Shown: positions 8,965 through 45,182 of the stretch, in pieces | How the letters are laid out: each line of letters opens with the position of its first letter | How positions within the stretch are numbered: the first letter of the stretch is position 1 | Assembly: GCA_051362555.1 (NCBI GenBank) | Contig: CM120640.1 | Span: forward strand, 3,410,001-3,474,000 | DNA: 64,000 bases | Origin: Lingula anatina | Taxonomy: Eukaryota > Animalia > Brachiopoda | Direction of reading: 5' to 3' | Position numbers and translations under genes: made by a program | The notes under the pieces: model-generated | The model's input: the letters and a program-made list of their open reading frames with translations, nothing else | What the model was told of the DNA's origin: nothing | Database searches by the model: none

Positions 8965-10681
8965 GTTGAGATACCCCCAGTAATATCGATACTTGAACTG
9001 TATAATGGTTTCGAATTCGAATTTGCCTTAATTTTGATATTATTTTGCGTTTTGACAGAGTGTTTTGTTGTAGGCCTATATTCTTCGGAACAAAGTCAAA
9101 TTGTAGATGCTAAATAGATCGTTCTTAGTTTTTTCTCTATATTTGGTTCTGGTGATAGTTCCCAAGAGCCAATGAAAGGGTTAAGGTGTTTTCTTTCTCT
9201 TAAGAGATTTTAACATTTGATCAAGGTTATGAATACAATTTAGGCAAATTATTGTAATGAACACCCAAACATAAAAGCCCGATAATTACTTGCCTTTGGG
9301 ATTGATTAAGTAACATGTTAGACTTTAGAAGATTACCTTGGTTGTGATCTTTCTTCAATTTTCAAGGACTAAGATATATTGTTCAAGAAAAGTTGTTGTC
9401 ACTAGGCTTATCATTTTTCAATATTTTGTTTCCTTTACATGTATTTCCTTATTTGGTGGTAGGGGGGCTTCCTTACAGCCTCTCTCTGAATCTCTATATG
9501 TAACTAATTTGACATCGTCATTTTGTTCCTTTGCAGCGGGACAAAAACTGATCTTATCCATTTGGGGAAAGAACGCTGCCTCCCCACTCCACGTGTTGCA
9601 CACGGGCTTTGGCGTCGGCTCGATGATCGTTCCCCTGATCGCCAACCCCTTCCTTGCCAACATACAGACAACAACCCTCACAAATACTTCAATGAACGAA
9701 ACCTTTATGTCTACCACCGCCCTACCCCCTACAATATCAAGTTTGGAATACACGACAGACGCATCAAACTCGACTACCGTAACTCGCGTCCTAAGAGAAT
9801 CCCGGATTGAATATGCATACTTAATCGTTGCCATCCTCGTCAGTGTTCTGTCCTTTGCCTTCTTCGTGTACCAGTGGAAATATTCCGAGTATGTCCTCCA
9901 TCCGGCTGACCACGAAACGGAAAGTAAGAAGAGGGTTCATGGAGTCAAAGAATTTATCCGTATCATCAATCCGGCCACCTGCGCCAATGGTAACTTTTGT
10001 TTTGGGCTCCAAATGTTCATATTGTTATCTTTTTATTTTTTCCAAGCAACAGGTGGAGAAAGACTGTACGGTAAGTTCATCCGATCCTATGCCATAGACC
10101 AGTTCAACTTTTCCGTGGACGAGGCAAGTTACTTAAATGTAGTCTTCTGGATCAGCTACTCTCTTGGTCGTTTCTCCGGATTCATCGTAGCCCACTGGGT
10201 CCCTATCCGCTTTTTGATCATTATAGAGGCAGCCGGCGTCTTAATTTCGGCAATCCTGTTGAATATATGGGGGCACACCGAGCCCCTCATGCTTTGGATC
10301 TTCACCCAACCAATGGCGTTCTTCATCGCACCTCTGTTTCCATCAGGTATTGCATTGGGTGACCATTACGTAGAAATGAGCGGCCTGGCCATTACAGTGC
10401 TACTTCTTGGTGGATCCGTCGGTGGAATTGCTTACCTCTTTCTCATAGGCTATTTGTATGAGAACTTTGGGCCGTCGATGTTCATGTACAACGTATTGGG
10501 GTTCGGTATAGCCGTGGTGGTGATGGTTGCCCTGCTCAGCGTTGTGGGCCACTTGCACGGAGATCGGTACCAGCGTGAGGATGAAACAGAACAAAGTATT
10601 GGGGATATGAAGGAAGTGGACAAACTAGAATACGCGGCAGATAACCCTCAAATGTTGTCTTACACCAATACTGCACTGTAG
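8014..10681 (+). CDS. MFSD4/NaGLT1-like MFS transporter, copy 2 (complete)
   Basis: Exons 8014-8136, 8445-8736, 9537-10681. ATG MDEKPNPG, GT-AG introns in phases 0 and 1, stop TAG. Exon 2 encodes the same peptide as copy 1. Confidence 0.9.
8921..8957. repeat. (TA)n microsatellite
   Basis: Perfect TA run in intron 2 of MFS copy 2; absent from the corresponding intron of copy 1. Confidence 0.95.
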
Positions 10682-18700: not shown

Positions 18701-19738
18701 GGATAGACAGTGGTAACATACAATGCTACTCTAGCTGTGAATAGATGAATTTGTTTCACATTGTGTTTTGGCTTTTCAAATGCGTAATGGAAATATTGGA
18801 GCGATTTTTAATAATGGTACGCGACGTTATACAGATGTTACTTAAGTGCACCGTCTGTAGGCCTAGCTTGTATGGCCATATCAAAGATTTTACTGTGCTG
18901 GCACAACCAGACGGCATAAGTAGCCAGAATTGCGTGACAATTAATAAAAAGAGCCTTCAGTGCTCTTTGAAAATCTGCCTCAATAAAAGTCCTCCCCGTC
19001 AGGTACTGTAAAAACCAATAGAAGGCGGTTTCTCTTGGGGATAAGATGGTGAAGTAATTTTCCACAAGAATACTGTTCACGTTAGACTCCCGATAGTCAC
19101 GCTATATGGCAAGCTCGGAGGGGAAGGCTTAGGGGAACAACAAACGGCATTTATCAACATGAATTATTAAAACCATCCGCGTTTGGAAATGTTCTTAAAT
19201 TCTCATTTTTATGTATACATACCCTGCAAAGTTATTATCTTTCCGAAATAATACTTTTAATAGACAATAAAACCACCTGAAATGTACAGGAAGTAAAGGC
19301 GGTCTAGGTGACGGGCATTTAGAAATAAATCGATAAATAAAGGGGGCTCGATACGTTGGAGTATTTTCCTTATCCTTTTCAATAATGCAGTAATAAACAT
19401 TAGGCCACACTTTTTTATTTTTATGGATGACATCCTCTGGGTACCCCAAAATCGGTGCGAGAGGGCGAAAAAAAAAAAAAAAAAAACGGTCCAAAAAATA
19501 AAAATACTGCTTAAGTAAAGGAATGCTGTCAGTACACAGCTGGAAACACAAATTTTACCACAGAAACACGTATCAAACTAACAATATGTCTTTATCCATG
19601 CTCTCAAAATATTAAAGCGTTGTGAATACTTCGTAGAAATGTAAAAAAAAAGTCATGAATAGATATACTTCTTATTACAAAATCTATTAAGGTTATTTCA
19701 TGCATTTTGTTGGTATAGCAATCAATAAAACAAATATC

Positions 19739-19967
19739 TATAGGAACCGGGTTGTACGTTACAACTGGCCTATGAATAAGTAAAGTGCCTACCTTTTCTG
19801 GATAGGCATCCAAGTCCTCGTTTTCTTGTTAATTCTCTCTTCACCACAACTTAGCACCATGCGCTTGAGCGCGCCATGCTCAACTCCAACGCTCTCAACT
19901 TCTAACTAACTACTACGCATGCGCCGTGACACGCTTCCGGGTCATGCAATGACCCCTCGGCACTACA
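19739..19967 (-). repeat. 3' LTR
   Basis: 229 bp; element strand reads TGTAGTGCC...GGTTCCTATA; matches 27335-27563. Confidence 0.96.
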
Positions 19968-19980
19968 CTCTCCCCCGTTT
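19968..19980 (-). other. Polypurine tract
   Basis: AAACGGGGGAGAG immediately precedes the TG of the 3' LTR on the minus strand. Confidence 0.85.
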
Positions 19981-20186
19981 TACCTTGAAGGACCGTGCCT
20001 TCTCGGTCGTGTCAGTGCCGAGTCCACTAAAGTCCACTTAAAGTCCACTTTCCTCCGTGGGAAAGGGAAAATTCCCGCCTGTCCCCGTGGGACTCAGGGG
20101 ATAAGTGCTTGCAGTGATGATGGGCGTCCCATCAAAACCACTAATCCTGGTCAGGTCGCACCCAGCCTGACCACACCCTCGCCCTT

Positions 20187-20480
20187 CTAACCATCTGGGC
20201 CCCTTTTCTCCAGGTATAAACGCCGTGCGTTATCCCTGGTCTGGCGCAACACTTCTCGCCATCGCTCTCCCCGGATCTCCGCCACTAACTTGGCCACGTG
20301 ACCAAGCAGAGCTGGAGTGGAGCACTTGTTCCGTTGGATGTTGAAATACGGAGCATCCGTCTCCAAGAGTAGTCTTTTCAGGGGCAAGGTTCGTAACATG
20401 TCATGCGCCTTGGCATTGACAGGCCCCTCATGTTCTGCGAAGCGCCCGTGACGCCTAAGTATACATCCAATTCTTCAGCC
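20187..20480 (-). pseudogene. TatD-family DNase C-terminal fragment carried inside the retrotransposon
   Basis: ORF 20399-20187 LRTLPLKRLLLETDAPYF...PALLGHVAKLVAEIRG...VLRQTRDNARRLY matches the TatD C-terminal signature (LLLETDxPY...NAxxLF/Y). One frameshift upstream gives DVYLGVTG (cf. TatD YxSFxG/YIGITG strand). The N-terminal HxH and GExGLD motifs are absent. Confidence 0.85.
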
Positions 20481-20481
20481 C

Positions 20482-23400
20482 TTAAGCTCGGCGTATGCAG
20501 TCTTGGCATTTGTACTTGTTAATGCTTAAGGCATCCGTGGCCGTCACATTAACACATGACCCGTGATACCACTCCCCGCAGTAATCACATTGCAGCATAA
20601 ATCTACCCTGCCAGGGTTGACGGCAACTGCAATATACCCGGTCATCGCCCCTCGCCGTGGAGTCGGGCACTGGATTCTTCCTCCAATGTTGTATCCACTG
20701 GGGCACCTCCTTGTCTCGACAAGGCTTCAACCTATCGTGGTTGGTCACAAAGACTGCATTCCGCACCTTAACGCGGAACAGGTTTGAACTGAGCCGTGCT
20801 ACAATTAAACCTGGACCCCTCCATGGTGGGCACAATTTCTTGCACTTCCCCTTGGCTGCCGCGGTATCCAGCACATACACCGTATCTCCCACAGCATACG
20901 GTCGCTCGAGTATCCTTAGATCATAGTCCCTCTTCATTCTTTTAGAGGCGACTCTCAGTTTACCCCGAGCCGTCTCGTGGGCTTCCATCAGATCAGCTGC
21001 CAACCGTGCGGCATAGCTATCTGAATCTTCAAAATTGATGCTCCTCCGTGGGAACATTAAACCTGCAGGTGCGTTCACCTCCCTCCCCAACATTAACCTG
21101 TTGGGAGTGTACCCCGTCATCCGGTTTACAGATGCCCTAAGTGCCCCGGCAATCTGTTGTAGACGCAAGTCCCAGCCGTTCTGGGCCTTCTCCGTGAAGC
21201 AGCGTACCGCATCCATGAGAGTGCGGTTATAGCGCTCTACCTGGCCATTGCTGGCCGGCCGGTACGGCGTAGTACGGGCCTTGTGAATCTCGAGCACAGA
21301 ACACACTTCAGTGAACAGCTTAGATTCAAAATTCCTCCCCTGGTCCGTGAAAATCTCCAGAGGGACTCCAAACCTGGAGAAAAATTGATCTATTGCGGCC
21401 CGTGCCGTCTCCTCCGCTGACTGTGATGGTAAGGGGATACATTCGACCCATTTCGTAAATTGGTCGACCATCATGAGTATGTACTCATTCCCCCTGGCAG
21501 TCTTCGGCAACGGTCCCAAGAAATCTAAGTGCACCCTCTCCATAGGCGCACCTGCCTGGAATTGTGTCAGAGGCACTTTTCCCTGCCTTGCAGATTTCTT
21601 ATTCTGGTTACACCGTGTGCACCCAGAAACGAAGTTTTCTGTCGCTCTTCCCATCCCGTACCAATAGAATCGCTCCTTGAGCCGATCCTTGGTTCTTTTC
21701 GCTCCCTGATGGCCTGATGATGGCAGGCAATGATGTAGTCGAATGGCTTCCTGTTGCCATGCCATAGGTAGCACTAACTTTTTATCCTCAGTCTCAGGAT
21801 CACACCTGTATAGCAGACCCTCTATGATGATAAACAAATCCCTATCCAGCCAATAGGATTTTAAGGCCTGGCTGCCTAGGAATAAGGTGGACTGATCAGG
21901 TAGCTTACCACTTTCCAAGCTCACCCTGATCACACTCAGGTCTGCATCCGCCTCCTGTGCTGCACGGACCTCCTCCACCGAATAACCCCAACTGGTGAGT
22001 CGTGAAGACCCGTGGTCCTTCACCTTGACCTCACCCTCTGCTTTTCCCTCTTGAAGTGTGGATTCCTTATCACACTCCACCGTGGGAGGTTCATCCTCAG
22101 GAGTTATCGGCGCGTCGCCTGTATCTTTAGGCCCGTGGCCACGTGCACGTCTCCGAGTAGTAACTGGAGCTACTCGTGGTGTTTTCCCTTGACCCCAGGG
22201 AATCTGATCTAACACCATCTGTAAGACCTGGAACTCTAGTGTATCCGTGATACACTCTTCCTCTCTGCATACCTCACCGAACACCGTGTGTTCAGAGTAC
22301 GCATTCACTGGATCCACCGTTACTGAGCGAACCGTCTTGCCATCGTTGTTTTGCTGACCTTCTGAAATTTCAACGCTGTGGATATCCTCCGTATCCCGGT
22401 ACGCACCCTGTGCTAGCGGAATAACATCATCCACTTCCTCCTCGAAACCCACCCAATTCTCGTGGGCTCGCCTGCAATACCCGCATCCACCACATGGTAG
22501 AGCATCTAGCCGCCCCCTGGTGCCTGCTTTGCACTGCCCCGTGTGAGTCGCTCTAGACAGCGCGTCCGCATTCCCATGTTTGCGCCCAGCGCGATGAGAC
22601 AACACCATGTCGTACTGTGAGAGCTCTTCCAGCCATCTCGCCAGCTGACCCTGCGGCTCCCGAAATTTCATCAGCCATCTTAAACTCGAATGGTCAGTCC
22701 TAATAGTAAATGGTTTCCCCAATAAATAGTACCTGAACTGTCGGGTGAATCGTACCACCGCCAAGAGTTCCTTGCGTGTCGTACAATACTTCCTCTGTTC
22801 CCTGGTTAATCCATAGCTACCGTAAGCTATCACTTTCTCCTGGCCATCTTGTACTTGAATAAGCTCTGCTCCTATAGCAAAGTCACTTGCGTCTGTATCC
22901 AAAATGAACTCTCCGTCCACCGTGGGAACAGAAAGAACCGGGGGAGATGTTAATGCCCCCTTTAATGCCGTAAAAGCCCGTGCTTGTTCCTCACCCCACT
23001 CGTAACTCTTTCCAGTTACAGCGTACAGGGGTGCCGCTATCTCACTGAAGTTTTTAATAAAGGCTCGATGGTAATTAGCCAAGCCCATGAATTTCTCCAC
23101 ATCTTTGGCACATGTTGGTGTAGGCCAGTCCGTGACTGCCTTAATGTCATGATCAGACATGGAGAGCGTCTCTCCTGTCACTATCCGTCCGAGAAATTCA
23201 ATCTCCTTCTTAAAGAAGATGCATTTCTTTGGCTTAAGCTTCAGCTCGTAGCTGCGGAACCTCTCAAGGGCGTCCCTTAGGTTCTGTAAATGCACATCAA
23301 AAGTAGTACCGAGTACCACTATGTCATCTAGAAATGCCAGCACAGTTTTCCAGGACATTCCACGGAAAACTAAGTTCATTATCCGAGCATAGGTCGCGGG

Positions 23401-25077
23401 CGCCCCGCACAGACCAAATGCCATACGCACATGCTCATAGAGACCATATTTCGTAATGAAAGCTGTCTTTTTCCGATCCTCTTCACGTATGGGCACCTGC
23501 CAATACGCAGAGTTGGCGTCCAACTTAGAAAAATACACATTACCCGACAAGGTATCCAAACAGTCATCGACTAAGGGTAATGGGAACACGTCCTTAGTGG
23601 TCACGGCATTCAACGCACGGTAATCGATACACCACCTCACAGAGCCATCTTTCTTCCGTATTAACACTGGCGCCGACGCCCAGTCGGAAGTTGACTCCTG
23701 AATCACTCCTGCCTTCAACATCTTCTGTAAATGGGCTTCCTCCTCGCCCACAAAGCACCGTGGCGTTCGCCGCATTCTCTGCTTTATCGGAAGAGCAGTA
23801 CCGGTGTCTATCTTATGCTCAACCAATGTGAAGTTTCCTAAATCAAATTCGTCTCTAGCAAACACATCCTGATACTCCGTGAGTAATCTCGCTAGCTGAA
23901 CTTTCTGCTGATCGTCTAATTCTGCACTGGATTCCTCATACACCTGCTTTAAATGAGAAGGCACGCGTCGCGCCTCATCATTGACCTCGTCATCGGTCCG
24001 TGCCGTGACTGATTGCACTGCTGGTGGTATGCAGTGAATGACCTCCGCCCCAGGTGACCTGCCACCCTCCCCTTGGTTACTAGGGAAACATAACGGATCC
24101 CCCAGGGGCTCCCCAGACGTTATAATACCCGCATAGGTAAAAGCCCGCCCCACTTCAGTACCCTTACGCAATAGTCTGTGCCTCTCACTGGGATTTATGA
24201 GGACCATGATGGGTTCAGACCCCCCATTACGAATAACCCTGGGAGCAAGGAACTTACCAACACCCCCCACCTTTGGCTCTATAACATAACTAGGAAGATC
24301 TACATCTAACTTACAGGCCACCCTGGCAGCGGAGTAAGGGGGTATCACCTGACGCCGTGCGACAGTGACCCTGGCCATCTGAGGTGTTCCCTTATCTGAA
24401 TTAGCGTCTAATGTCAGATACATGCCGTCAAACTGCATCACTCCTCTGCCGACATCCACTACTGCCTGTCCTAAGTCCTTCATAATGTCCATTCCCAGCA
24501 GCATATCTTGTTCAATGGGGGCTACGTATAGCCTCACAGCATACCACTTATGTCCAATCTTTAACTTAACAGGGCCTGCCGTGAACCCCTGCATCACCAT
24601 TTCCCGACCAGCGGCTAAAAGCTGTACTGAATTCAACCTCTTAGGTTGTTTCTTAAGACTGTTGTAAATGCGGTCTGAAAGTATCGTAACTTGAGCCGCT
24701 GTGTCCACTACAGCATTCACAGCAATGTTTCCCACTTTCATCTGAAGTGAATAATCCGCCACTGTTCCGATTTGTCGCACCACTACCATGGGAGCAGGAA
24801 CCGTGCCCTGTATTCCCCCTGTGGTAGCCTCATCTGCCCTAGTTGGTGATTCAACGTGACCCGTATCACGGTTGGGCTTGTCTTGGACTAGTGCTGCCCC
24901 CTGTCGAGTAAATTCTGATTGCACACCCTGTACCTCCGTGGGTACAGTGCACTTAATATCCGAAACTGCTGACTCCTCTGGTACCCTGAGTTTCTTAATG
25001 GGCTTATTTATAACATCTGGGCCTATGAATCGCTGGGTCGAGGGTTGGCCTCCGGCCTCGACCCGGTGGAGTTTCCC
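20482..25077 (-). CDS. pol: Pol polyprotein: aspartic protease, reverse transcriptase, RNase H, integrase, C-terminal PHD finger
   Basis: Uninterrupted ORF (open from 25119): VVDTAAQVT (PR), WCIDYRALN/MAFGLCGAPAT/FLDDIVV (RT), LDTDASDFAIG...TDHSSL...NADALSR (RH), H-x6-H...CTRC, HLDFLGPLP, TDQGRNF, NGQVERYNRTL (IN), WRGP (GPY/F), C4HC3 PHD. Probably expressed as Gag-Pol by -1 frameshift. Confidence 0.96.
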   Translation of the reverse strand, partial: GKLHRVEAGGQPSTQRFIGPDVINKPIKKLRVPEESAVSDIKCTVPTEVQGVQSEFTRQGAALVQDKPNRDTGHVESPTRADEATTGGIQGTVPAPMVVVRQIGTVADYSLQMKVGNIAVNAVVDTAAQVTILSDRIYNSLKKQPKRLNSVQLLAAGREMVMQGFTAGPVKLKIGHKWYAVRLYVAPIEQDMLLGMDIMKDLGQAVVDVGRGVMQFDGMYLTLDANSDKGTPQMARVTVARRQVIPPYSAARVACKLDVDLPSYVIEPKVGGVGKFLAPRVIRNGGSEPIMVLINPSERHRLLRKGTEVGRAFTYAGIITSGEPLGDPLCFPSNQGEGGRSPGAEVIHCIPPAVQSVTARTDDEVNDEARRVPSHLKQVYEESSAELDDQQKVQLARLLTEYQDVFARDEFDLGNFTLVEHKIDTGTALPIKQRMRRTPRCFVGEEEAHLQKMLKAGVIQESTSDWASAPVLIRKKDGSVRWCIDYRALNAVTTKDVFPLPLVDDCLDTLSGNVYFSKLDANSAYWQVPIREEDRKKTAFITKYGLYEHVRMAFGLCGAPATYARIMNLVFRGMSWKTVLAFLDDIVVLGTTFDVHLQNLRDALERFRSYELKLKPKKCIFFKKEIEFLGRIVTGETLSMSDHDIKAVTDWPTPTCAKDVEKFMGLANYHRAFIKNFSEIAAPLYAVTGKSYEWGEEQARAFTALKGALTSPPVLSVPTVDGEFILDTDASDFAIGAELIQVQDGQEKVIAYGSYGLTREQRKYCTTRKELLAVVRFTRQFRYYLLGKPFTIRTDHSSLRWLMKFREPQGQLARWLEELSQYDMVLSHRAGRKHGNADALSRATHTGQCKAGTRGRLDALPCGGCGYCRRAHENWVGFEEEVDDVIPLAQGAYRDTEDIHSVEISEGQQNNDGKTVRSVTVDPVNAYSEHTVFGEVCREEECITDTLEFQVLQMVLDQIPWGQGKTPRVAPVTTRRRARGHGPKDTGDAPITPEDEPPTVECDKESTLQEGKAEGEVKVKDHGSSRLTSWGYSVEEVRAAQEADADLSVIRVSLESGKLPDQSTLFLGSQALKSYWLDRDLFIIIEGLLYRCDPETEDKKLVLPMAWQQEAIRLHHCLPSSGHQGAKRTKDRLKERFYWYGMGRATENFVSGCTRCNQNKKSARQGKVPLTQFQAGAPMERVHLDFLGPLPKTARGNEYILMMVDQFTKWVECIPLPSQSAEETARAAIDQFFSRFGVPLEIFTDQGRNFESKLFTEVCSVLEIHKARTTPYRPASNGQVERYNRTLMDAVRCFTEKAQNGWDLRLQQIAGALRASVNRMTGYTPNRLMLGREVNAPAGLMFPRRSINFEDSDSYAARLAADLMEAHETARGKLRVASKRMKRDYDLRILERPYAVGDTVYVLDTAAAKGKCKKLCPPWRGPGLIVARLSSNLFRVKVRNAVFVTNHDRLKPCRDKEVPQWIQHWRKNPVPDSTARGDDRVYCSCRQPWQGRFMLQCDYCGEWYHGSCVNVTATDALSINKYKCQDCIRRA

Positions 25078-27068
25078 ACCTGCGGGCACTCCCTTGCAAT
25101 GTGCCCTTGCCGATTGCACTTATAACACAGCACCGAGCTTCCAGTGCTGCCCCGTCCCCAGCCCCGCTGGTTTCCGGGTGCGGCTCCGTGGCCGTAACCG
25201 GTAGATGACCTCCTACTCAGCTCCTGGCGGACATCTTTCAACGCCTTCTCCATCTCCTTGATGGTGTCCCTCATCTGTTCCAGCTCTGGAATGTTACCCT
25301 CTGCTGCAGGCGTCACCTGGTTGGCTCGCTTGGCTCCCGGGCGCAATTTCTTTCCCGCATTCTCCATAGTCACTCGCATTTCCCTATGCATCTTAGCCAG
25401 CTGCATCGCTTCCCTTAAGGTGGCTGGCTGTCGCATATAAATTGATTGACCTGCCTCTGAATCAATCATGCCCGCGCAGAACCGACTTACAGCCTCCGAC
25501 TCCACGAATGTCCTAGGTAACTGAGCATACGCTTCAGAAGTCAGACGTAGCACCCTGACTCCCCATTCATCCACCGTTTCCGTCTCGTCTTGAGTAGCGT
25601 TATGTAGCTGCGACCGGACCGTAGCCGGTGTGTCCGTTTCTCCGTAACAGGTCTCCAATTCCTCCATGAGACCTTCATATGAGAGCTTACCTAGCCTGCG
25701 TGTGACGTTCACACAACAGTCTAGGGCTTTACCCTTCAGGCAGAGGCATAGTGCATCCAGGGACATGTCGCGATCCCAATCCTCCCTCTCTGCCTGTCGT
25801 AAGAAAAGCAACTTAAAAGCAGCCCAACTTCCGTGTCCGTTAAAAGTTAAGCTCTTAGGAGGATTGACCTTCCTCCTCTCTATTGAGTCTTGTTCTGCCC
25901 CTAGCTCCGTGAGCCGTGCAGTCCTCCTCGAGGCCGCGCCCCGTTTCAATATAGGAGAGCCCTGGAATACAGGGTGTTCGTCCTGGCTACCTCCCTCCAC
26001 TGGGGTGCTATGATACACTAAGTGCCCTGAATTCGATCCATTTCCCACCACTGGAGATCCGTGATCCCCAGGGTGTACGTCTGGAGAGCTGTGACTTCCA
26101 GGGTGTTGTACTGAGAATCCGTGATTCCCAGGGTACATGGCTGGAGAGCTGTGATTTCCAGGGTGCGGTACTGAGAATCCGTGATTCCCAGGGTACATGG
26201 CTGGAGAGCTGTGATTTCCAGGGTGCAGTGCTGAGAATCCGTGATTCCCAGGGTGCATGACCGGGGGACTGACACCAGGTGCCATTGGAGGGCTATGATT
26301 CCCAGGGTAACCCGAATAGCTGCCACCACCCCCCGGGCCAATAGCATACCCCTCCCCCCGGACATCCCCGGACATAGGAGTCTCCCTTACAACGCCCCCC
26401 CCTGGACTAGGTGTAAACAATTCAGGGGTATAAACAGCCCTATCCTGACTCCCGGGACCTAATGCTACCCCACCCCCCATGGGGCTAGGTGTATACGGAA
26501 CATAAGGACCCCCCTGCTGAACCCCACTATTTACATTCTTAACTACGTTTTTACCTGGGCTCCGTTTGACAAGTTGAGGCGAATTCGCTCCCTCCAGTCC
26601 ACTATCCTCGAATAACCTCTTCGGCACCGTGGCCTCCGAGTTACGATGTGCACTCATTTGACCCTCACAGCCTCCTAGCTGCCGCGTGCCACCTCCGTGA
26701 GGCGCACTTTCGCTATTGAAAGCGTTGCTCTCCTCCTGAGCAGAAAATCCAAAGAACAGTCCTAAAAGAAACCGGAAAAATCTCCATAGCCAGTTTCCAG
26801 ATCCTCCTGTCTCCTGCACCTTCCTTTCCCTGAGTGAAACAGCCGTGCTGCCCACACCCAAGCGCTGATTCGGCTCAAAGTCCACCATATCCAGCGTACG
26901 AGGAGCCAGTCTGCAGCACAAAGCACTTTCCACTTGCTGCACATTTAAATTTCCAAATTGTTCCCTCAATTCGGCTATTTTGAACACTTGGTCTTCCGTG
27001 AGACCTGGAGTCCGCATCAACTCATTCACATTTGCATAATTTATGAAAATCCTGGCGTGCGTCGCCAT
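25023..27068 (-). CDS. gag: Gag (681 aa from ATG 27068): HhH domain, hydrophobic segment, His/Pro/Gly repeats, capsid, CCHC knuckle
   Basis: ATG in AAAATGG context; PPKSLTFNGHGSWAAFKLLF...LKGKAL capsid-like region; QDETETVDEWGVRV major-homology-like segment; CYKCNRQGHIARECP zinc knuckle. Confidence 0.93.
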   Translation of the reverse strand: MATHARIFINYANVNELMRTPGLTEDQVFKIAELREQFGNLNVQQVESALCCRLAPRTLDMVDFEPNQRLGVGSTAVSLRERKVQETGGSGNWLWRFFRFLLGLFFGFSAQEESNAFNSESAPHGGGTRQLGGCEGQMSAHRNSEATVPKRLFEDSGLEGANSPQLVKRSPGKNVVKNVNSGVQQGGPYVPYTPSPMGGGVALGPGSQDRAVYTPELFTPSPGGGVVRETPMSGDVRGEGYAIGPGGGGSYSGYPGNHSPPMAPGVSPPVMHPGNHGFSALHPGNHSSPAMYPGNHGFSVPHPGNHSSPAMYPGNHGFSVQHPGSHSSPDVHPGDHGSPVVGNGSNSGHLVYHSTPVEGGSQDEHPVFQGSPILKRGAASRRTARLTELGAEQDSIERRKVNPPKSLTFNGHGSWAAFKLLFLRQAEREDWDRDMSLDALCLCLKGKALDCCVNVTRRLGKLSYEGLMEELETCYGETDTPATVRSQLHNATQDETETVDEWGVRVLRLTSEAYAQLPRTFVESEAVSRFCAGMIDSEAGQSIYMRQPATLREAMQLAKMHREMRVTMENAGKKLRPGAKRANQVTPAAEGNIPELEQMRDTIKEMEKALKDVRQELSRRSSTGYGHGAAPGNQRGWGRGSTGSSVLCYKCNRQGHIARECPQVGNSTGSRPEANPRPSDS
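25035..25077 (-). promoter_or_regulatory. -1 programmed ribosomal frameshift signal (gag to pol)
   Basis: Slippery heptamer G GGA AAC (25077-25071) in the gag frame, 6-nt spacer TCCACC, then a perfect 9-bp stem GGGTCGAGG/CCTCGACCC with a 12-nt loop. The -1 frame reads (G)KLHRVE, which is the pol ORF. Confidence 0.88.
26051..26260 (-). repeat. Coding minisatellite in gag: 7 x 30 bp with alternating (60-bp) higher-order structure
   Basis: Encodes HPGNHGFSAL/HPGNHSSPAM/YPGNHGFSVP/HPGNHSSPAM/YPGNHGFSVQ/HPGSHSSPDV/HPGDHGSPVV. Confidence 0.93.
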
Positions 27069-27323
27069 TTTGTTTTTTCCTTGGCGCACGTGCCGCCGAA
27101 AATTCCAGAAAACTCCTTAAAACTTGTAAGAAACTACTGTAAAAACACTCTAAAAACACTCACCAGACCGTGCTGGGGTTTCCTCATATACAATATATAC
27201 AACAATAAACATTAAAATGGTAGGGTAGCGTGCCTGAGTGCGGAGTTCAGCTCCGTGGCTGAAAAACTCCTCAGCAGAAAAATTCGTAACTTTTCTGCCC
27301 AAATGTGGCACAAATCCGGCCCG

Positions 27324-27333
27324 GCTGCCACCA
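27324..27333 (-). other. Primer-binding site (probably tRNA-Leu)
   Basis: TGGTGGCAGC one base inside the 5' LTR, complementary to the ...GCTGCCA-CCA 3' end I recall for metazoan tRNA-Leu(AAG/TAG). Confidence 0.75.
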
Positions 27334-27334
27334 A

Positions 27335-27563
27335 TATAGGAACCGGGTTGTACGTTACAACTGGCCTATGAATAAGTAAAGTGCCTACCTTTTCTGGATA
27401 GGCATCCAAGTCCTCGTTTTCTTGTTAATTCTCTCTTCACCACAACTTAGCACCATGCGCTTGAGCGCGCCATGCTCAACTCCAACGCTCTCAACTTCTA
27501 ACTAACTACTACGCATGCGCCGTGACACGCTTCCGGGTCATGCAATGACCCCTCGGCACTACA
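27335..27563 (-). repeat. 5' LTR
   Basis: 229 bp, matches 19739-19967; followed by TSD TATC on the plus strand. Confidence 0.96.
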
Positions 27564-28824
27564 TATCAAACAAACAGTGTGTCTTTATTTGTATTCTCAG
27601 AATATTAAAATGATGCAAAGATATGCTTAATACTACCAAATCTATTAAAGGTCATTTCGGACGATGCCATTTTGTCTACTTCGACTCACACGGCCAAACT
27701 GTCAGGTGGCCTGTCCGACCTTCAGCCAACCAAATACCTCGACGCCCTTGTCGACCCTTTTTTCGCTACAGAAAACCTGGTAGCCTACGTGCTTTGTACA
27801 GAATGTCACTGAAACTTTTCGGGCGATAATCGCTGGCGTCCGCCAGCCTTTCGCACAATTGTAAAAAGGTGATATCTCCATGCCCAATATCAATGGCATA
27901 CCAATCCAAAACGACGGCACCCGTTCTCTTTATGACTTTAATTGTCGTGTATTTTGTAATCCTAGAGATGAATTTGACGGCAAAGCGGCCACATTTCCAC
28001 GTGGCGATAATACGCATGCGCAGAAAGCTCATTTCCTGGCAAATTCAATAACGACGTTTGCGACAACCGCCTACGTTGGGGGCTGGGGGGGGGGGATTTT
28101 TTTTTTTTTCGGAGAACGGGCGAAAATCGGTGCGCGCGCAGGATGTCATCCATAAAAATAAAAAAGTGTGGCCTTATTAGAGATAATGCTGCCATATTAA
28201 CAATACATCGGGGTTAATTTTGCTAATTCGAGATGATAAAGCAGTAGGTCTAGCATTGTGGGGGGTGGAAACTGTAATCTGTGACGGTCGGGATCACGTC
28301 ACACTGTCCACCGAAAATGCCAGACCACAATTAATAGAAAAAAAAAACTAGCCATAATCACCAACGTTACATGGTCACATCATATCCTAGGAAGTGTTAC
28401 AGTACAATTATGGAAACCCTACTTAACTAAGCCAAAAGAGTAACTAATGCTTTTTTGTGTGCGTGTGTGTGAAACTGGGGCATGGGAATATGCTTGAAAT
28501 ATTTACTTCTAATTTCAGTAAAGAGGCAAAACAATGACTGTATTTAAGGAAAAACGTAATTAGGGTTTTTTTTTGTTGTCAACCATGCCAATATCTTGCT
28601 TACAGTTGCCTGCAGTACCGACGGCATTGTTCCACCTGATAATAATCAGGCTTGTGAGGGGGTGGGTGGGAAGGGGTCAAACACACCACCCTTTTGGCCA
28701 ATTCATTTTGGGTTTTACGGTACCAAGGTGTCGTTTATTGAAACCTCTCACATGAATAACATAAATGATAGAATTCATGCCCAATAGAATGAGAAAAATC
28801 ACAAACAAAATAGAATAGAAGACT

Positions 28825-45182
<16,358 letters not shown>

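Follow-up and report, generated by a model that had tools for sequence, protein, structure and literature searches.

Introduction

Chromoviruses are Ty3/Gypsy retrotransposons whose integrase carries a chromodomain, a histone-reader module at the end of the protein. PHD fingers have been described as accessories in the Gag-Pol of the Chlamydomonas element Gypsy-7a_cRei (10.1101/2022.06.16.496473) and at the C-terminus of Ginger1 transposases (PMC2836005). Enzymes are also found as accessories: the Juno and Vesta long terminal repeat (LTR) retrotransposons of bdelloid rotifers carry a third open reading frame (ORF3) that encodes a DEDDy 3'-5' exonuclease, and the rotifer ORF3s are typically expressed from spliced messages (PMC5408684). 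TatD nucleases of group II, which are defined by an HxH motif (PMC10085689) and include YcfH, YjjV, TATDN2 and TATDN3, have in common a central E, two H, an ExD and a TIM barrel (PMC10085689, PMC10711561). TATDN2 degrades the RNA in R-loops, and its disordered N-terminal region is required for binding them (PMC10711561). Here, we analyze an LTR retrotransposon that lies on the minus strand at 19739..27563 of a 64,000-nt window from the brachiopod Lingula anatina (GenBank assembly GCA_051362555.1, contig CM120640.1, positions 3,410,001 to 3,474,000). The element likely belongs to a Ty3/Gypsy lineage that is old and whose nuclease is separately spliced and acts in trans, and the window copy is likely a deletion derivative. 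An earlier, sequence-only reading had taken this copy for an intact Gypsy element with a ComEA-like helix-hairpin-helix (HhH) in Gag, a PHD finger ending the integrase and a TatD segment between pol and the polypurine tract (PPT).

Like Juno and Vesta, the lineage has a gene for an enzyme of the 3'-5' exonuclease type in the env position, with its catalytic residues intact. In contrast to the rotifer elements, the enzyme is a TatD TIM barrel and not a DEDDy exonuclease, has two extra domains, is found in several phyla and is co-inherited with the integrase. Selection on it is plainly purifying, whereas the rotifer ORF3s did not depart significantly from neutrality when compared within genomes (PMC5408684). 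As in Gypsy-7a_cRei and Ginger1, a PHD accessory with a proposed chromatin role sits on a Gypsy-type polyprotein or integrase; however, our hosts are animals, and the finger is C-terminal in the integrase and of the PHF8/BPTF type. The sequence-only reading held that standard Gypsy elements lack all three modules; a PHD in a Gypsy polyprotein is already described for Gypsy-7a_cRei (10.1101/2022.06.16.496473). As compared to chromoviruses, the histone-reader module at the integrase end is a PHD predicted for an active mark, and there is no chromodomain. As compared to cellular group II TatDs, the TatD of ORF3 is retrotransposon-encoded and shares its protein with two helical domains, one at the N-terminus and one with C-C-H-H. 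ORF3 resembles TATDN2 in its long N-terminal extension and in a Cys that precedes the central Glu by 53 residues in 76/103 ORF3 proteins, as compared to 55 in TATDN2 (PMC10711561). We found no description of a TatD-bearing retrotransposon in literature searched outside Repbase, GyDB, Dfam and subscription journals, and TatD is absent from the main text of the transposon papers scanned, including PMC5408684 and PMC2836005. The TatD-ORF3 Gypsy lineage is apparently not described in this literature. The name Selgy was considered for it and dropped, as Selgy is a plant lineage.

A young element with a truncated ORF3

The element has LTRs, a primer-binding site, a PPT and a target-site duplication, the structural marks of a Ty3/Gypsy LTR retrotransposon. 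We found that the 5' LTR (27335..27563) and the 3' LTR (19739..19967), both 229 bp and on the minus strand, are identical at 229/229 nt, and that a perfect 4-bp target-site duplication, TATC, is present at either flank (left copy 19735..19738, right copy 27564..27567; flank comparison, no strand assigned). Both features had been noticed in the sequence-only reading and are borne out here, and the element is a recently inserted copy. The PPT, recognized from sequence, is at 19968..19981, and the primer-binding site, which we take to be of the tRNA-Leu type, is at 27324..27333, one base past the LTR (both minus strand). The best solved match of the reverse transcriptase (RT) is Ty3 RT (E=3e-85, with the next kind at E=3e-44), and the element is placed in Ty3/Gypsy because its RT-RNase H is closest to Ty3. 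All 30 bins are covered by contigs from 4/4 DNA runs, with long contigs ~99% identical; thus, the sequence is real.

In this copy, all that we found of ORF3 is a remnant of its C-terminal TatD end (20187..20461, minus strand), in which 20447-20190 correspond to residues 723-808 of P0235 (RefSeq XP_013405738.1, an 808-aa Lingula anatina protein) at 98.8% identity. At its start, the remnant reads for a few codons in another frame than the remainder. The TatD match in the window spans only Pfam positions 184-252 of 253, and the remnant amounts to the last 86 residues. Only one of the six metal-site residues is left in it, and it has neither the splice acceptor nor the gene start. Because the rest of P0235 has no other significant match anywhere in the window, the copy is missing ~716 of 808 codons, or ~2.1 kb, about nine-tenths of ORF3. 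The distance from the pol stop to the LTR is 514 nt, as compared to ~2430 in L003, one of 41 related loci that we obtained by scanning metagenome contigs with the integrase-PHD. Judged from its coding capacity, the window copy is an ORF3 deletion derivative that would encode no nuclease. The terms "intact" and "nuclease" from the sequence-only reading can therefore not be kept for this copy. A TatD match does lie between pol and the PPT, as that reading said; it is, however, the C-terminal remnant of a separate third ORF of 600-1100 aa, which has two more domains that had escaped that reading. We also considered that pol might extend into the TatD segment by read-through or a frameshift and rejected this, as there are stops in both other frames and relatives have a separate ORF with its own start.

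The deletion more likely took place before the present insertion, because the LTRs are still identical, and in that case ORF3 would be dispensable in cis. The window copy suggests that mobile copies can lose ORF3. An alternative is that this copy is freshly crippled or mis-assembled, either because ORF3 is needed in cis, or through deletion after insertion, or by assembly error. This alternative is favored by the retention of ORF3 in 18/19 informative relatives and by the finding that none of the contig pieces listed bridges 20430-20471, the deletion junction. On the other hand, as the LTRs are identical, there was little time after insertion for both a deletion and an independent change of frame, and one contig of run X4 stops exactly at 20472, as at a branch between two forms, which is a weak point against the alternative. 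We consider this alternative unlikely. Another form of the family with an internal deletion is present in a contig of run X1, which joins window position 20535 to 23785.

Whole ORF3 proteins in related elements

To describe whole ORF3 proteins, we used a profile search over 1.84 billion representatives, from which the best 150 are listed out of 1323 at E<=1e-30, part of those being cellular TatD. In relatives, whole ORF3 is 600-1100 aa long; it starts with a helical domain, which is followed by a disordered linker, a domain with C-C-H-H and a TatD of group II that is complete. In the AlphaFold model of P0235, the confident parts are ~1-90 (helical), ~395-520 (C-C-H-H plus helical) and 525-805 (TatD), with a long disordered linker. 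The modeled TatD superposes on solved TatDs with Z 25-29 (best Z 29.4, rmsd 2.7 A, 254 aligned), and P0235 has the HxH motif, the E, H, H and D metal-site residues and, in the model, the TIM-barrel fold of group II. Sequence identity to solved TatDs is 17-24%, and the ORF3 TatD is under the NCBIfam cut-offs; an Atlas search returned TatD clusters only, with feature scores <0.9. For the N-terminal helical domain, detected in 37/103 ORF3 proteins, the structure search gave no clear match (best Z 7.6, rmsd 2.9, 86 aligned; Foldseek none at E<=0.001). The C-C-H-H domain also gave no clear known fold in the same structure search, which barely tested it. Basic clusters upstream of TatD are present in 86/103 ORF3 proteins by a loose pattern without a control. 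The ORF3 of errantiviruses is a fusion glycoprotein, whereas the ORF3 described here bears TatD.

Among the best 150 homologues listed, the metal site H,H,E,H,H,D is kept in full in 125 of the 139 that cover it, and the putative zinc ligands C,C,H,H are kept in 105 of the 109 that cover them. These residues suggest that whole ORF3 is a catalytically active nuclease. The TatD fold could instead be kept mainly as a metal-dependent scaffold for binding nucleic acid, with little catalysis, and the loss of at least one site residue in 14/139 homologues points in that direction. However, the 125 homologues with all six residues come from families that are only 24-67% identical, and we regard a mainly non-catalytic role as quite improbable.

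Carriers of ORF3 with a species name include Lingula, Ostrea, Argopecten, Mytilus and Dreissena, and in three Mytilus "tatD" gene models a fusion with integrase or protease domains is present. The linker of a second Lingula ORF3, P0185, contains two CCHC zinc knuckles. A search aimed at cellular TATDN2 returned 28 proteins, of which the eight weakest-scoring all look like element ORF3s.

To look at expression, we counted loci at which the pol end is followed, within 300 nt, by a pyrimidine tract with YAG and an ATG. Of the 41 loci, seven were left out for too little downstream sequence and one more was dropped as short. The motif is present at 16/33 loci as compared to 11/294 and 4/101 control windows (~4%). 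The window copy has no acceptor-plus-ATG motif; its 5' leader has a donor-like site at 27163 (candidate splice donor 27158..27163, minus strand). In whole members, ORF3 is likely made from a spliced message, which may use a donor in the 5' leader.

Linkage, selection and history of the modules

ORF3 sequence follows pol at 18/19 loci with at least 2 kb of downstream sequence, at 22/24 with at least 1 kb and at 27/33 with at least 300 nt; the ORF3 profile was built from 8 of the loci and the HhH profile from 2, and those matches arise by construction. When 16 ORFs downstream of pol were scanned, seven had a full TatD, five a partial or weak one and four none. HhH, PHD and TatD are together on one contig at 6/41 loci. 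The earlier proposal of a distinct lineage that combines the three modules survives in part: they do occur together on these contigs and TatD is under purifying selection, but the modules are not one unit, as four loci have ORF3 without a PHD, and the window copy is without a nuclease. Our data suggest that the PHD was gained or lost after ORF3, in trees that are unrooted. The four loci without a PHD (L025, L026, L027 and L030) are a sister group. We found no relatives among viral contigs.

The TatD domains of loci L004 and L005 are 67% identical, yet 50/64 fourfold third positions differ, while the remaining 27 TatD pairs are 24-44% identical. By this codon comparison, the ORF3 TatD is under purifying selection. 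We found that integrase and ORF3 distances are correlated (rho 0.75, 13/5000 permutations, 11 elements) and that the two trees share their main groups in this small, unrooted set. This fits one old capture of ORF3 followed by co-inheritance with the integrase. That the window copy has only a fragment could point to TatD as neutral host cargo acquired by chance; however, ORF3 frames are long and open, synonymous sites are saturated while the protein is conserved, and tree congruence is joined by a conserved position after pol. Neutral cargo is contradicted by metal-site conservation, purifying selection and the congruence of integrase with ORF3, and we hold it to be extremely improbable.

Gag, Pol and the integrase PHD finger

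Gag (25023..27068, minus strand, ATG at 27068) is 681 aa long and has an N-terminal HhH, a 30-nt repeat region, a capsid-like domain and a CCHC knuckle. Pol (20482..25119, minus strand) is open over 1545 aa stop to stop and has the Pfam order PR-RT-RNase H-IN-PHD with catalytic motifs present, so the open gag and pol of the sequence-only reading are upheld. A slippery heptamer, G-GGA-AAC, in the gag/pol overlap (25071..25077, minus strand) is a predicted -1 frameshift site. The repeats in gag (26050-26271) are 30-nt tandem units, in frame, of two alternating types.

The HhH at the Gag N-terminus (26946..27050, minus strand) is ComEA/EEPD1-like, and its closest solved structure is EEPD1 (E=8e-4). 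In the window copy it reaches 17.6 bits (E=0.004), under the Pfam PF12836 gathering cut-off of 27, and in two relatives it is above the cut-off at 28.0 and 38.6 bits. The ComEA-like HhH first proposed for Gag appears weak but conserved across the lineage.

The C4HC3 PHD finger that ends the integrase (20497..20631, minus strand) was correctly recognized from the outset: it passes Pfam with 30.6 bits against a cut-off of 24 (E=3.5e-7). Its best solved relatives are the PHDs of PHF8, KDM7A, PHF2, CFP1, PPS, BPTF and DIDO. A PHD is present at the integrase C-terminus in 111/120 listed pol matches, a figure biased by a query that included the PHD. The C4HC3 pattern including the Trp is matched by 107 of these 120, and within the 107 the Y/F is kept in 104/107 and the Met in 107/107. 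PHF8/BPTF-type PHDs read H3K4me3 through a Y-M-W cage. The integrase PHD is therefore predicted to be of the H3K4me3-reader type, and binding and targeting would follow as predictions. No chromodomain match was found in pol by the Pfam scan, which sets the element apart from chromoviruses. Named carriers of the pol-PHD include Nucella, Ostrea, Haliotis, Pinctada and Lytechinus. In one relative (P0080, 1/120 listed matches), a Tpt1/KptA RNA 2'-phosphotransferase (E=4e-43) lies between the integrase and the PHD.

Proposed roles of ORF3 and the PHD finger

We favor a reading with a probability of roughly 0.45, in which the window element is a young Ty3/Gypsy copy minus ~2.1 kb of ORF3, whole members make a spliced, nuclear, trans-acting TatD nuclease, and the PHD tethers integration to H3K4me3. 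Gag and Gag-Pol would replicate the element as usual, with the HhH as an additional nucleic-acid grip in Gag and the PHD biasing integration toward H3K4me3 chromatin. ORF3, made from the spliced message, would be a separate nuclear nuclease that works in trans on RNA:DNA or single-stranded intermediates of the element. By analogy with TATDN2, an R-loop RNase whose N-terminal region is likewise long and disordered, we favor RNA in hybrids or R-loops as its substrate. The nuclear location, catalysis, substrate and trans action of ORF3, as well as PHD binding and targeting, are proposals, as are the roles in target-site selection and cDNA processing put forward in the sequence-only reading.

The main rival reading is counter-defense, in which ORF3 would degrade small RNAs of the host or scaffolds of nascent RNA, thereby relieving silencing of all copies in trans. 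Such a role would suit a separate gene in the env position with two domains without a clear known fold and a disordered linker, and one that a young copy can lose; for the rotifer DEDDy ORF3s, too, a role in silencing has been entertained (PMC5408684). In contrast, TatD activity is described on single-stranded DNA, abasic DNA and R-loops, and not on Argonaute-bound RNA, in the relevant parts of PMC10711561 and PMC10085689. We consider counter-defense possible but not probable. A broader statement is one that we put forward only tentatively: in an old animal Ty3/Gypsy lineage of several phyla, an H3K4me3-reading PHD would steer integration to active promoters, and an env-like spliced message would yield a TATDN2-like nuclease, with two further domains that match no known fold clearly, to clear R-loops or disarm RNA-guided silencing family-wide in trans.

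Several observations weigh against the nuclear TatD nuclease and PHD tethering that we favor. TatD enzymes also act on single-stranded DNA and abasic sites (PMC10085689). The acceptor rule was written after inspecting the loci and fails at 17/33, several of these being near misses. L019 is without a detected ORF3, and the four sister-group loci have ORF3 but no PHD. The deletion junction is unbridged among the contig pieces listed, and P0235 is known here as a protein record alone, not by its genomic place. Finally, the sole insertion site in the window is inside a high-copy miniature inverted-repeat transposable element (MITE), which is silent on promoter targeting.

With this lineage, the accessory genes known from LTR retrotransposons of animals gain a new enzyme class, one kept very long. 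The lineage also allows one to test directly whether a PHD guides an animal Gypsy element to active chromatin, which would mirror the chromoviruses. Many annotated "tatD" genes in bivalves and Lingula are likely transposon genes, which bears on claims of nuclease-family expansion. Some "TatD hydrolases" in symbiont metagenome-assembled genomes (MAGs) are likewise likely to be transposon genes or host contamination. Five element proteins (P0012, P0027, P0030, P0129 and P0147) stand under MAG names (Sedimenticola, Ca. Thiodiazotropha) and are likely host DNA in symbiont bins.

Insertion site and other features of the window

The LTR ends are TGT...TA, not TG...CA, both in the window element and in two relatives (L003:5110-5352 and L036:227-612). 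The MITE into which the element is inserted is ~0.94 kb long, with 38-nt inverted ends (19399-19436 and 28140-28177) and TTA on both sides, and is presumably PIF/Harbinger-like. Its depth in the runs is hundreds of times that of the element, and the empty-site joints found in contigs derive from this high-copy MITE and are not locus-specific. Elsewhere in the window, two long ORFs on the plus strand (1102-2286 and 9329-10678) have weak MFS transporter matches, and a zf-RVT match at 32763-33506 (plus strand) is likely a LINE fragment.

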